Notes: generated from the sequence alone by a model not told the origin. DNA of 64,000 bases from Rhizodiscina lignyota (GCA_010015805.1 ML978132.1:372001-436000), one strand, 5' to 3'; positions 32,182 to 38,619 are shown, numbered from the stretch's first letter. Program-made: numbers and translations.

Positions 32182-33447
32182 CTATACCGCCGTATCAACT
32201 TGCATCTCCCAGCTCCCCAACCACCGCCACGTCCTGGCGACACCCTGCAAATCCCTGAGTGCAGCATTGACACTTCCCCTGCCATGTCGCTCTCTCTTTC
32301 CCACCATCTCCACAAAGAACAGATAATTCCACGGTTCAACCAAACTCGGCCGCGTATTAATGCTCGTGAGATTCAGTCCATGATCGCCAAAAACCCCCAA
32401 CCCCTTCGCCAGTGCGCCGGGCGAGGTATGCGGGATTGTGAACGAAATAAGCGTCTTGAATGTCGGCTGAGAGAAAGGATTTCCCGAGGCGTAGTCAGAA
32501 GGCATAGTAGCAGATGTGAGGATCGGTTCCTCCTCCTGTGAGGTCGGTGATATGGCGGCGTTCAGGGGAGATTCAATCGGGTCTTCTGGCTCCTCTTTCT
32601 TCAGCATGAAGAAGCGCGTCATGTTGCCGCTCTCATCTTGGATGCCGTACGCCAGGATGTCTAGTCCGAATACTTGCGCTGCCGTCTCGCTCGATATCGC
32701 CGCGCTCTCACCGATCATGGTGGTAGAGTAGGCGTCACCACTATCAGGTCCCAGTTGAGTAATGTCGCTTCCACTGGTGAAGTGCTCGTCGCATGGGTTC
32801 TCTTGCGCGACTATCTCGGCGGCTTTCGAAGTAGATGAGACATCCTGCCTTTCCACGCCCTTGAGGTGCTCCGAGAGAAACAGCTCGCACTGGCCCCAGG
32901 CTTGCGGGTGAGAGTACAGCTTCTTAATCCTGTGCTTGATCTTCTTGAACCGCTCCAGATCGTCTCCTGGCCGTGAAGGTTGATCAGGTGAGGGTCTGAG
33001 CTCCTTTGGTAGTCGTCCAACTAGACAGTGCCGCACATCAACATACGCCTCGCCGCAGACCAGCACGTCTTTCAACTCCTTCTTCCGGTCTGCCAGGAGG
33101 TCTAGCGTCATAACAACGCTGCCGTTCGTCGAGTTCTCGAATGGCACAACACCGCGCCATACTGCCCCAGATTGCGCGGCCTGAAAGATGTCTGCGATTG
33201 TGGTGTACGGAACGAGCTCGTGAGTTGCGGCTGGGAAGCTTTCGAGCGCAGCCTAGAGCGCATATGATCAGTACTGTTTTGCGGGGAAGTTTATGGTCTC
33301 ATCAAAGTTGATTATAATTCATGTCGCGCAATTCAGAAGCACGTGTCCCCCTAAAATAAGGGTAGCCAAGTACGAATGATAGTAGTTACGCACTTGATGA
33401 GTATAGGAAGCGACAGGACCGAGGAACGCGACCTTTGGCCTCTCCAT
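32182..33447 (-). CDS. PHA2: Prephenate dehydratase
   Basis: VAFLGPVASYTHQ, VVPFENSTNGSV, YSHPQAWGQC, NMTRF and ACT domain LNLTSINTRP. One intron near the 5' end. Confidence 0.93.
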
Positions 33448-33993
33448 TGTCAATTCGATTGGAAGAGAAAGCCTTCGAATTTTGAGAAGATTTGTTACGT
33501 GTAATTTCAAAGGTGTTTACGCCGCGTCAAGCCTCCAAATAAAATATTGAAAGGCGCGATGAGGGTTAGGGTTGCGGAACCAATGAGAACCCGACGTTGG
33601 GCGACGGCATTTATGGAGCCTCTGAGCTCCTTAAGAGGAATAAGCTGGAAGTAGCAAAGTGTTGCGGATTGCTGGGGTTTCAAGGGATTACAACTTCTAC
33701 AAGGCAGTTCTATAATGCCGTGAGGCATAAGAGCATATGTGATTCTAGTTCAACCTAATTCAACTAATCCCCATTGCTGTTTCACTCAGATCCCCTCTCG
33801 TCTCATCACCAAATGAGTGACTTGGCGCAGAAACATTGCAAAAGCATGCAACTAAACGATTGACTAGGTGCTAAAGATGACTTCCTCTTTGGCCACGGTT
33901 TCACATCGGAAGGGATGTACATGTATCCATTGTTTCTCGCCAACCTTGTGTGAAGCTCCATGACCACTGCCCAACTCATTCAGCAACGCAATT

Positions 33994-34047
33994 CTGTTTA
34001 CATTATCAGCAAATGGCAAAGAGAGGGCTTGAAGAATTACCACTTAC
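33994..34047 (-). other. Predicted 54-nt spliceosomal intron in the eRF1 3' UTR
   Basis: Minus-strand GTAAGT donor at 34047, CTGAT branch site, CAG acceptor ending at 33994. Length is typical of introns in this window. Confidence 0.75.
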
Positions 34048-34085
34048 TAGTGATAACTCCCGTGAGAGCATTTGTCGTTGTTCGC

Positions 34086-34238
34086 TTAGAGCTTTGCCAT
34101 TCCGGCGGCGGGACGTTGCATGTCCTGGACCGCTGGTGCCTGAGCGCTTTCGGAGCGCCCCTCGCGAGGTGCCGTCAGAGACGTGGCCGGAAGGGTCTCT
34201 GGAAGGCTTGCCTCGCCCATTGCGAGGTTACTAAACCG
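34086..34238 (-). other. In-frame readthrough extension of eRF1 (50 codons + TAA)
   Basis: After TGA-CGG the frame reads RFSNLAMGEASLPETLPATSLTAPREGRSESAQAPAVQDMQRPAAGMAKL*. Confidence 0.6.
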
Positions 34239-35658
34239 TCAATCGTCGTAGAATTCATCCTCGTCGTCATAGTCAGCGAGCTGTTCAAAGTTGACCTTGT
34301 AACGAAGGATAGCTCCGATGCCACCGAAACCCTTCACGAACTGATTGCCCTCGCTAGAGCGGTCGGAAACAAACTCTAGAGTAGCGCCAAAGTCGCGGTA
34401 CTTCTCCGCCAGCCATTCGAGGAAGGACTGCTGGTCAACGACTTCCATTTCCTGGCCGGTGGTCTTGTCCATGAAAAGCTCGCGGTTCTCTTCCTGAAGC
34501 TTTGTCGTGTGAACGATAACTTCAGCACCCTCAGATGACTTGAGTGTCCAGCGAGTGATCTCCAGATTTTCGTAAACGATCAGGGTCTCTGCAGCACCAA
34601 GCTCAAGAGCCTTGAGGGTATCTTCAACACCATAGCAGACTTTGCCCGTATCCTGGCTAATTTCGTCAAAGTAGCGGTTGATCAGCTTCTTCTCCTGGAT
34701 GAACTTGACGTTGCTGAGCGTCTCGGCAGACAATTCAATGGCCTGATTGAAGCCGTTCTCACCACCATACGAGACATCCACCACCTTGATGACCTTTGTC
34801 TGTAGACGCTGGTCGAACATGTCGGACTGGTTAAGATCGTTCTTGAAATCCGCAGAACCAGCGAGAATAAGACCAGCCACGTTCACCTTGTCGTTGCTGA
34901 TGAAATTCTGGACTGCCAATTCTGCAACTTTGCGGACATAGTTGTGGCGTTTCTCCTCACGTAGACGTGCAAAACGCAAGGCAGATTGACCACCACGACC
35001 GTGCTTCTTTGGCAGATCGACAGAGAACTTGTGAATGACATCACGAGTGTTGCCGCTGAGAGTGCCGAAAAGAGCACCGTTGCCATCCATGATGATGAAG
35101 CCAAATTTCTGGTCAGATTCCAGCAGCTCGCTCAAGGCCTCCGTGTGAAACTTGTTGTCGCACAAGTACAAGGAGGTGTTGATGGGCTTGAACGGCTCGA
35201 AGTCGATGTTAATCTTCCTCTCTTTGCCCTCTGACGTGATAATTTCACCGCAGTATACGACGAGGCCATTTGGCGGGACCTTGGAATAGAGCTTCAGGCG
35301 CTGCTGGGTGGAGGTAATCGCAGACAACACAGAGAGGCGATTGACGCGGGACTTGATGTTGGAGGCCGTACCCTGCGAATCTTAATTTTAGTAAAACGTG
35401 GTCGACACAGGGCGTGAAGGAACATACGAATTCTTCAGCCAACATCTTCGCTGCTCGCGAGACTTGGTCCTTAGGGGCTACAATCGGGAATCAGCCTCCA
35501 ACCCAGTGGCGCATTTCTGACCGCAGCGGGGCCTTACGAATGATGAGCGAAATCATGCTGGTGCCATTTCCACGCGCCGCTTCAAGGCGCTTGATCAGCT
35601 TCTTCACCTTCCATATCTCGATGTTCTTGTCGGCGTCGTTTGCGTTGGGTGCAGACAT
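34239..35658 (-). CDS. SUP45: Eukaryotic peptide chain release factor 1
   Basis: [15 protein letters not shown] and KKHGRGGQS motifs. Two introns near the 5' end. Confidence 0.98.
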
Positions 35659-36353: not shown

Positions 36354-38619
36354 ATGAACGTGCCCGGTGGTGGAAAGCAGCCAACAACATGGGAAGAATA
36401 CGAGCGAGGTGGGCGTAGCAGCTCATTCGGCTCTGAAGGAAGCCATATACAATGGGACGAAGTCGAAAGGAATACTAGTGCAACTTCTGGCAGGTCACAT
36501 TTGGGCGTACGTCAAGATGGCCAAGATCAAGACCTGCGACGACGGAGGTATGGTCTCCCTAACTCTCGTCTTAAACCAAGCTGACTGCTGAGCATAGGTC
36601 CTCAATGTCCGTGAGACTCAGTGCTCTCGCACAAGCAGGAGGTCCCAACAGTATAGACAATTTCGCTCGCTCGTGGCAGCGTGCTGCTGGTTTCTTCGAG
36701 ATAACGCCGGTCCGCCCATCCTTCCGAGTCCAGACGGATGATGAAGGCGAAGGGGACGAAGCAGAGTACAGACAAAGTGATATTGAAGAGTCTCCAGTTT
36801 CGCAGAGATCACTGCTCCGAGCGGCATTCGAGGCACGGCGGCCGTCTGAGAACGTCATTGAGGAGAGCAACGGGGCCGAAGAAGATACACATCTAAGTCC
36901 TGGTGCAAGAGATGACAGAGCTGTCTCGCAGAGGCTGTTGGAACGACAAAGATCGCGAGATGAAAGTATCTTCCAAATCGAGCCGTCGTTGGCCTCACCA
37001 TTTGGTGGCAGTTATGGGACGATGTATGGCAGCCTCGCATCGCGGGTCAATGAGTCGTCGATGAGACACGCTGGCAGGCTTTTCACGGAACAGCAGATGA
37101 AAGGTGTCTCTGAGCCGGACAAAGAGCGGGAACCTCTGTTGGTGAGACAGATTGAGGAAGATGGCGTAAAGTACAACATTGTTGTGGGACAATCCACGGT
37201 GCCGCAGACGGTCTTCAACTCTGTCAACGTCCTCATTGGCGTGGGATTGCTCAGTCTCCCACTCGCCCTAAGGTATTCTGGATGGGTTATCGGCATGATT
37301 TTCTTCCTCTTCTCCGCACTAGGGACGCAATACACCGCAAAGGTCCTTGCAAAATGTTTGGATGTCGACAGCTCCCTCATCACGTTCGCTGATTTAGCGT
37401 TTGTCTCCTTTGGACATAGCGCGAGGGTGGTTACGAGCATCATCTTCACAATCGAGCTTGTTGGAGCAAACGTCGCACTCGTCGTTCTCTTCGCCGACTC
37501 CTTGGATGCACTTATTCCTGGACTAGATCTCCTCGCATGGAAGTTGATCTGTGGCGTCATCCTCGTCCCGTTGTCCTTCCTCCCACTTCGATTACTCAGC
37601 TTTACCAGCATCGTGGGAATTCTCTGCTGCTTTGGAAGTAAGTAAAATACCAGGAACTGAAATTGGCCACCTACTGACTGCCGCAGTCGTCCTGGCTGTC
37701 TTCGTTGACGGATTTATCAAACCGCACCAACCTGGTTCGCTTCGCGAGCCGGCAAAGACATACTTGTTTCCGGAAAACTGGGGAACAGTTCCTTTGAGTT
37801 TTGGATTACTCATGTGTAAGATTTACTTTCATTGTGAGGAGAGCATTTTCGCTAATATTTTACAGCTCCTTGGGGTGGACACAGCGTCTTTCCGAATATC
37901 TATAGAGACATGCGCCATCCAAACAAGTACCATCGTAGTGTGAATATCACCTACGTCTTCACTGTATGTTCTCACAATTTGTTTAGGTCTGATCGATTGC
38001 GCTAACATGGAGATAGTATTTAATTGACCTGGCCATGGCTGTTGCTGGTCTGCTGATGTTCGGCAATTTGATTCGAGACGAAGTCACAGCAAACATTCTC
38101 TTGACCGACGGCTATCCCAAGTGGCTTTCAATCTTCATCGTTGTCTGCGTAGCGATTATACCTATAACTAAAGTCCCCTTGAAGTAAGCTCGCATCCCTC
38201 ACATCCTACACTATCTTCAATACTAAAAGCTCTGCAGCGCCCGTCCTATCGTCTCAACCATTGAGATCATCCTCGGGCTGGACGCACGCACCCTTGCAAC
38301 AGCCGCGCCCTCTCTTGTTGGCATTTCTGGCTTGAATCGCGGCATAATCAAATTCTTCGTCCGTGTCCTCACGGTGGTCGTCTTCATTGCTATTGCCGTA
38401 GTCTTCCCCTCTTTCGACCGCATCATGACGCTCCTTGGCAGTGTGTGCTGCTTCTCGATATGCATTATCCTGCCGCTAGCATTCCATCTGAAGCTTTTTG
38501 GCAAAGAGCTCGGAAATTTTGAGTATTGGGGGAACTGGGTAATGATGGTTATCAGCGCAGTGATGGGGGTTGTTAGTACTGTCTTTGCGTTCTTTCCCAA
38601 GGAGATGATTGGGGCTTAA
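36354..38619 (+). CDS. Vacuolar amino-acid transporter (AAAP family, Avt1-like)
   Basis: GGPNSIDNFARSWQRAAGF, GQSTVPQTVFNSVNVLIGVGLLSLP, GGHSVFPNIYRDMRHP. Multi-exon, many TM segments. Confidence 0.9.

Follow-up and report, generated by a model that had tools for sequence, protein, structure and literature searches.

A probable readthrough and nonsense-mediated decay switch in the 3' untranslated region of the Rhizodiscina lignyota eRF1 gene, in a version conserved among related fungi

The window analysed here, that is, a stretch of 64,000 nucleotides (nt) from Rhizodiscina lignyota (GCA_010015805.1 ML978132.1:372001-436000), carries on its minus strand the gene for the release factor eRF1, whose product is identified by the Pfam domains eRF1_1, eRF1_2 and eRF1_3 (E values of 8e-49, 3e-35 and 2.5e-15, respectively). 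The spliced gene model contains a sole stop codon, at its end, and what follows that stop is our subject. As it is eRF1 that determines how efficiently each termination event proceeds, holding its level steady is a basic question, and the features collected in Table 1 bear on how a fungus might do so by combining readthrough of a stop codon with nonsense-mediated mRNA decay (NMD).

Table 1. The eRF1 gene and the features of its 3' region, in positions of the window
Feature	Position	Strand	Details
eRF1 gene	34239..35658	minus	ATG at 35658; introns 35537-35478 (60 nt) and 35427-35373 (55 nt); 434 aa, C-terminus DEFYDD
Stop 1 and its context	TGA 34241-34239, then CGG 34238-34236	minus	preceded by GAC GAT
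Readthrough extension (tail), predicted	34089..34238	minus	50 sense codons, RFSNLAMGE...QRPAAGMAKL
Hairpin 1, predicted	34211..34227	minus	CCUCGC (34227-22), loop AAUGG, GCGAGG (34216-11); starts 11 nt after the stop
Hairpin 2, predicted	34176..34201	minus	CAGAGAC (34201-195), 12-nt loop, GUCUCUG (34182-176), then ACGG
Second CCUCGC	34164..34169	minus	complementary to the GCGAGG arm of hairpin 1 (34211-34216), 42 nt downstream; pairing would enclose hairpin 2
Last three codons of the tail	34089..34097	minus	GCA AAG CTC = AKL, like a peroxisomal targeting signal type 1 (PTS1); clade pattern
Stop 2, TAA	34086..34088	minus	38 nt upstream of the 5' splice site of the candidate intron
Candidate intron of the 3'UTR (3' untranslated region)	33994..34047	minus	54 nt, GTAAGT..CTGAT..CAG; CTGAT 12 nt before CAG; top score 9.7

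A preliminary description of this DNA had pointed to the TGA-CGG at the end of eRF1, the 50-codon frame that runs on to a TAA, and a 54-nt intron candidate that begins 191 nt past the first stop and 38 nt past the second. All of these are in the sequence as described, though the same account overlooked the two hairpins and the conservation at the tail's end. The intron candidate is the only one to pass strict criteria on the minus strand between 33000 and 36500, and in 30 dinucleotide shuffles such intron-like strings arose at 0.09 per kb and strand. One might suppose that a long open frame and an intron-like string have simply come to lie behind a stop codon, and taken singly the features are not extremely rare: at the local composition, the probability of at least 50 open codons is 0.08, and a TGA followed by C is common. 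Candidates of the GTAAGT type, however, are expected at 0.01 per kb only, and the same combination recurs in related loci; as an explanation, chance is hardly credible.

To obtain these related loci, metagenome contigs were scanned once with the last 173 residues of the window's eRF1, and of the 516 confirmed relatives the best 80, with 69-89% identity, were retained. Counts out of 81 refer to these 80 loci plus the window, and counts out of 71 to those sequences that are distinct over 150 nt; where an intron splits the last codon of the gene (see below), it was modelled before stops and frames were counted. Stop 1 is TGA in 81/81 sequences and the base at +4 is C in 79 of them, the triplet after the stop being CGG in 32, CAG in 19, CAA in 17, CTG in five and something else in eight. 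Past stop 1, frame 0 stays open for at least 48 codons in 71/71 distinct sequences (median 72, maximum 198), and the other two frames reach that length in 5/71 and 3/70 only. The stop context and the open frame, which the preliminary description had proposed to look for in an alignment of eRF1 3' regions, therefore do recur in relatives.

The base before stop 1 is T in 81/81, and the last codon always ends in AT, although GAC encodes Asp too. This last eRF1 codon is GAT in 81/81 and never GAC, with the Asp codons just upstream mixing GAT and GAC (34239-34243 in the window, and in all loci), which points to a constraint on the nucleotide at -1 of the presumed leaky stop. In 30 of the 81 sequences, an intron of 47-88 nt, present in 25 distinct versions, splits that same Asp codon (..YD G/GT..AG/AT TGA, with slashes at the splice sites); the loci concerned are L001-L005, L017, L018, L020, L021, L023, L025-L029, L043, L056, L057, L060, L062-L071, L076 and L077, and the window is without this intron. 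Because the intron sits two bases before the stop, in those 30 the leaky stop and its context would be assembled only by splicing. A T at +4 (TGA TGG) is confined to L076 and L077, which retain hairpin 1 and a frame of 48 codons, stop 2 being followed after 14 nt by an intron candidate.

Hairpin 1 recurs in the relatives in the form CCTCG[C/T], loop, [G/A]CGAGG, starting 11 nt past the TGA. With the spacer fixed at 11 nt, all six pairs are present in 65/71 distinct loci, as against 27/852 at control offsets. This counting in a fixed register was used instead of RNAalifold, which returned two pairs only on the alignment of 71 sequences, because differences in loop length and five shifted hairpins break the alignment columns. 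A composite motif of stop plus hairpin is found once in 70/80 loci, always at the eRF1 stop, and has one match in the 64-kb window where 0.11 would be expected. The loops vary in sequence and measure 5 nt in 54 and 8 nt in 11 sequences, so the reading frame is preserved. In five loci that read TGA CTG or TGA CTT (L038, L041, L042, L045 and L049), another hairpin, GGCUC/GAGCC, located ~3 nt further downstream, replaces CCUCGC/GCGAGG; in this group, to judge by the predicted pairing, the shape of the element is kept and its sequence replaced.

A CTGACG occupies the place of hairpin 2 in 34/71 distinct loci, with at least five contiguous outer pairs in 20/34. Hairpin 2 covaries, these 20 holding 11 distinct arm sequences (e.g., CAGUC/GACUG versus CAGUU/AACUG). 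No synonymous variation is seen in the codons overlapping the hairpin elements (every Leu is CTC, every Glu GAG), which places the constraint here on the RNA. A downstream CCTCGC of the kind listed in Table 1 occurs at +40 to +130 in 12/71 sequences (shuffles: mean 3.1, maximum 9 in 200), and among the 65 sequences with hairpin 1, folding favours hairpin 1 in 36 and the alternative pairing in 29. Such an alternative may be regulatory, or it may be a by-product.

In alphaviruses and several plant viruses, a UGA followed by CGG or CUA and a 3' stem constitutes the type II readthrough signal, and readthrough is 3- to 14-fold higher with the stem (Firth et al., NAR 2011, PMC3159437). The window has the first of these two contexts, and at the sequence level stop 1 shows what one would look for in a readthrough context: UGA-CGG, a C at +4 and a conserved hairpin. 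Likened by sequence alone and to the parts of the viral study drawn on here, the two have in common UGA-CGG, a short spacer, a conserved stem and conservation extending to ~100 nt past the stop, and they differ in that the signal here lies in a cellular gene, is followed by a second hairpin, and has a local 6-bp hairpin where viral stems have 11-12 or more bp. Compensatory changes mark the viral stems, which begin ~7-9 nt past the stop; here the stem begins after 11 nt, its six pairs are found in 65/71 loci and are near-invariant, and it is hairpin 2 that covaries. A search of Rfam over 33700-34400 gave no family match at E values up to 1, and a literature search on eRF1, stem-loops, readthrough, filamentous fungi and UTRs, with subscription journals outside its coverage, found nothing.

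One might also ask whether readthrough is needed at all, that is, whether the 3'UTR intron triggers NMD, readthrough is negligible, and the hairpins and open frame have some other RNA-level function (stability, say, or localisation, protein binding or the control of splicing). The first ~90 nt after the stop are conserved without synonymous variation (Leu CTC, Glu GAG and CTG ACG are invariant), the stem is nearly invariant and does not covary, and the alternative pairing is predicted in 29/65 sequences, all of which would suit such a role. Left unexplained by it are the opening of frame 0 alone in 71/71 sequences, loops that differ by 3 nt, the invariant TGA-C and the wobble of the C-terminal codons described below, and we regard it as quite improbable.

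The preliminary description had also held that this design is known for eRF1, and plant work bears this out. In plants, an eRF1-1 3'UTR of the readthrough/NMD kind combines a leaky stop with an intron that begins >50 nt downstream of it and a second stop that lies too near the intron to cause NMD; in experiments, NMD was induced by the 3'UTR intron, readthrough gave partial rescue of the mRNA only when the next stop was near the intron, and the eRF1 level set readthrough (Nyiko et al., NAR 2017, PMC5397192). In the passages of that study drawn on here, the Arabidopsis stop has a C at +4 (TGA CAATCA; TGA CAA stands in 17/81 loci here), the intron begins 130 nt past the stop (191 nt for the candidate in the window), and the next stop lies <25 nt upstream of the intron (38 nt in the window). 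The same passages also set plants apart: they retain extra eRF1 copies with ordinary 3'UTRs, their extensions are unconserved and motif-free, whereas the tail end here is conserved as a peptide, their context is CARYYA and not UGA-CGG, and a 3' hairpin goes unmentioned in them. They further recall the +1 frameshift of bacterial RF2 (prfB), which likewise has a release factor sense its own abundance at the stop of its own mRNA (PMC5397192), although there the recoding yields the functional protein, whereas here normal termination would make the protein and recoding would only protect the mRNA.

As to the intron of the 3'UTR, equivalents of the window's candidate are missing in transcript-like contigs of three lineages. 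L016 has 1 mismatch with L013 in 597 nt but is without the 48-nt GTACGT..CTAAT..AAG that starts 29 nt past stop 2 in L013; L036 and L080 are without the 55-nt GTGTGT..CTGAC..CAG present in L030; and L059 is without the 54-nt GTAAGT..CTGAC..CAG present in L058. These intron-sized gaps came out from alignment lengths, the blastn screen at >=93% identity having absorbed gaps into single alignments. The intron-less short contigs extend 448-582 nt beyond stop 1, well past the junction, and the simplest reading is that they are transcript-derived assemblies. When close relatives are aligned, the interior of the intron is the least conserved part of the 3'UTR, and both flanks are nearly invariant. 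In the window, the 3'UTR beyond ~90 nt does not align with the nearest relatives, so that the second UTR exon is without sequence-level support and the layout alone is shared. A public run that contains the stretch as one near-identical, DNA-like contig, and may be the source of this DNA, shows no splice joints in it.

That layout comes in two versions. In the window's clade, a tail of 48-57 codons ends in TAA and is followed by the intron, with 179-209 nt from stop 1 to the 5' splice site and 23-38 nt from stop 2 (38 in the window, 29 in L013, and 35 in L015, L024, L035, L050, L071 and L075). Other lineages have a frame that enters the intron and, in spliced contigs, continues over the junction, with 98 codons in L036 and 119 in L059. 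As far as the sequences go, both versions are in keeping with the published rule on where the following stop may lie. We put that rule as an intron >55 nt after stop 1 with stop 2 at most 55 nt upstream of it, or a frame that runs into the intron; applied to automated best intron candidates in 70 distinct loci, it fits 52/64, compared with a mean of 43.7 and a maximum of 50 in 2000 permutations of position, a control that is weak because all frames are long.

Stop 2 itself may be embedded in a splice site. In a large part of the window's clade (L013, L014, L028, L031, L032, L034, L043, L050 and L075), it reads TTG TAA G.. and overlaps a GTAAG 5' splice site, which, used with the same 3' site, would excise stop 2. 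The transcript-like L016 used the downstream site, and the window (CTC TAA GCG) is without such an overlap.

Most of the tail behaves as a spacer, as plant extensions are reported to do (PMC5397192), because it has no codon-position bias: over its full length in one set, differences at codon positions 1/2/3 number 70/68/80, versus 6/3/99 in the adjacent coding sequence (CDS). For the 50-codon set, the CDS control was unusable owing to indels in the acidic tail of the protein. The very end of the tail is another matter. At 23 distinct loci, it reads RPSPLRS[VM]MTAS or a close variant, with codon positions 1 and 2 invariant, position 3 free, and switches between AGC and TCG and between CGN and AGG. 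Such wobble speaks for selection on the peptide and hence for translation, and we take the codon pattern to mean that the end of the tail is under peptide-level selection. In loci of this type (e.g., L047, L051, L053, L055, L064 and L073), the motif is followed by a conserved TGA GTT GAA and, ~18-23 nt later, by the intron. SPLR resembles a proline-directed kinase site, and a role of the RPSPLRS end as an arrest peptide or degron is conceivable. Tail ends in other clades include ..MTAS, ..QNN and ..THST.

In the window's clade, the tail ends in [SA][RKH]L in 15/17 rows (SRL in nine, ARL in three, SKL in one, AHL in one, and AKL in the window), the rows of L016 and L013 representing one source; the exceptions are L028 (SML) and L046 (SLL). 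The Leu and Arg codons of this tripeptide vary synonymously. A precedent exists in the cryptic PTS1 that readthrough adds to fungal enzymes, where UGA is likewise followed by C and the tail ends in a conserved tripeptide of the PTS1 type (Stiebler et al., PLoS Genet 2014, PMC4207609). The PTS1 expression of that study fits 14/17 clade rows, including AKL (AHL is absent from the expression), and a conserved PTS1 tripeptide at the tail end is indeed what the window's clade has. It does not share the UGA-CU context of those genes: the window has UGA-CGG, and CT stands at +4 and +5 in 6/81 sequences (CTG in five, CTT in one). The published cases, moreover, have short tails on metabolic enzymes, compared with a 50-codon tail on a translation factor here, and eRF1 is unmentioned in that study (PMC4207609). 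A literature search for eRF1 with PTS1 or peroxisomes found nothing linking them, to judge by titles and abstracts and with subscription journals outside its coverage. Peroxisomal targeting of an extended eRF1 is best treated as a lead suggested by the sequences and not as a finding.

Such a tail end raises the question of whether readthrough mainly makes a C-terminally extended eRF1 isoform with a fate of its own, for instance peroxisome import via AKL or SRL or existence as an unstable or regulated form, with a secondary role for the 3'UTR intron; this would be compatible with the NMD circuit. Peptide-level selection at the tail end argues in its favour, as do the [SA][RKH]L ends with their synonymous codon changes, the fit of AKL, SRL, SKL and ARL to the expression for fungal readthrough peroxisomal isoforms (PMC4207609), and the contrast with plant extensions, which the plant study, in the parts consulted, reports as not conserved (PMC5397192). 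Yet most of the tail is without codon-position bias, the PTS1-like end is limited to one clade in which L028 and L046 depart from it, the search of the literature within the coverage given above turned up no peroxisomal role of eRF1, and the reading does not account for why stop 2 and the intron are so tightly coupled. We consider this explanation unlikely.

The arrangement as a whole is better accounted for by autoregulation. We regard it as probable that the window holds an eRF1 readthrough/NMD autoregulatory 3'UTR of the published design, in a version conserved across related fungi; the switch proposed in the preliminary description is supported by three sequence features of the plant circuit, the intron among them as a candidate, by conservation of the arrangement across 80 relatives, by transcript-like contigs from which the matching intron is absent, and by the wobble at the tail end. 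Kurilla et al. (FEBS Lett 2020) reportedly describe, to go by their title, autoregulation of Neurospora crassa erf1 by readthrough and 3'UTR-intron NMD, and their abstract is said to propose similar circuits in many fungi. Compared by title alone, that case concerns the same gene in the same kingdom, with the same logic. Spliced 3'UTR introns are known to trigger NMD dependent on the exon-junction complex in N. crassa (PMC10578600, in the part consulted).

How the circuit might run can be set out in a few steps, in which the leakiness of the stop, the sensitivity to NMD and the dependence on eRF1 level are carried over from the literature. The 3'UTR intron would be spliced, leaving an exon-junction complex ~170 nt after stop 1. 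Termination at UGA-CGG would leave that complex in place and expose the mRNA to Upf1-dependent decay. With eRF1 scarce, a near-cognate tRNA would read the UGA, aided by the C at +4 and by a hairpin that, 11 nt past the stop, would stand at the mRNA entrance of the ribosome. The ribosome reading through would then add 50 codons, stop 38 nt before the junction and clear the complex, and the mRNA would be stabilised. High eRF1 would thus lead to NMD and low eRF1 to rescue, by analogy with what has been published on plants and with what the Neurospora paper states in its title.

A further proposal goes beyond this circuit and is tentative, indeed doubtful on balance: the fungal tail may be more than a spacer for stripping the exon-junction complex. 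Readthrough would depend on a near-invariant RNA element made up of UGA-C, the 11-nt spacer, the CCUCGC/GCGAGG hairpin, the second hairpin and a downstream CCUCGC able to capture GCGAGG, and the tail would end in a selected peptide, of PTS1 type (AKL) in the window's clade and RPSPLRSVMTAS in other clades. If true, extended eRF1 made under scarcity in the window's clade would be bound for peroxisomes, to serve some function in them or simply to be cleared from the cytosol, and the fungal circuit would differ from that of plants, where the tails reportedly lack conservation.

Several points weigh against autoregulation by readthrough and NMD and should be kept in mind. The 80 loci are mutually related and come from metagenomes without assigned taxonomy, and counts over them are not independent events, because the loci are related to one another. 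The RNA origin of the intron-less contigs is our reading of their sequences, and the CDS introns are uninformative on it (L016 ends short of them, and L059 and L048 belong to a lineage that lacks them). The conserved intron position that the preliminary description expected holds in part: beside the loci that fit the rule, 12/64 automated picks misfit and six loci are without a candidate, three of these being contigs already spliced. Several of the 12 misfits have, by eye, weaker 5' splice sites near stop 2. The 50-55 nt rule itself derives from plants and mammals. As for the hairpins, hairpin 1 has 6 bp and an 11-nt spacer, whereas viral signals have spacers of 7-9 nt and longer stems; its stem barely covaries, 94.4% of cells being paired and the closing pair alone varying (CG in 52, UG in nine, UA in five), which may reflect sequence-specific recognition. 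Folded alone, the RNA of the window favours pairing of GCGAGG with the downstream CCUCGC (probability 0.99) over hairpin 1 (probability 0.01), the structure of minimum free energy uses that alternative, and the 165-nt fold does not surpass those of shuffled sequences (z -1.07).

With autoregulation by readthrough and NMD as the reading that we prefer, a published circuit would be written into a further fungal genome, and the sequence comparisons indicate strong selection for it in each of the 80 related eRF1 loci from metagenomes. These loci constitute a set of natural variants for studying how hairpins tune UGA readthrough, with an 11-nt spacer, loops of 5 or 8 nt, and a stop 2 placed before or beyond the junction. 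If the conserved tail end, PTS1-like in this clade, is functional, then the extended isoform would be part of the biology, which is what the plant work, in the parts drawn on here, argued against for plants.

The genes on either side of eRF1 complete the picture of the locus. Downstream, on the minus strand, a prephenate dehydratase with an ACT domain occupies 32185-33516, which leaves ~500 nt for the remaining eRF1 3'UTR; upstream, on the plus strand, 36575-37645 encodes an amino-acid transporter (Aa_trans).

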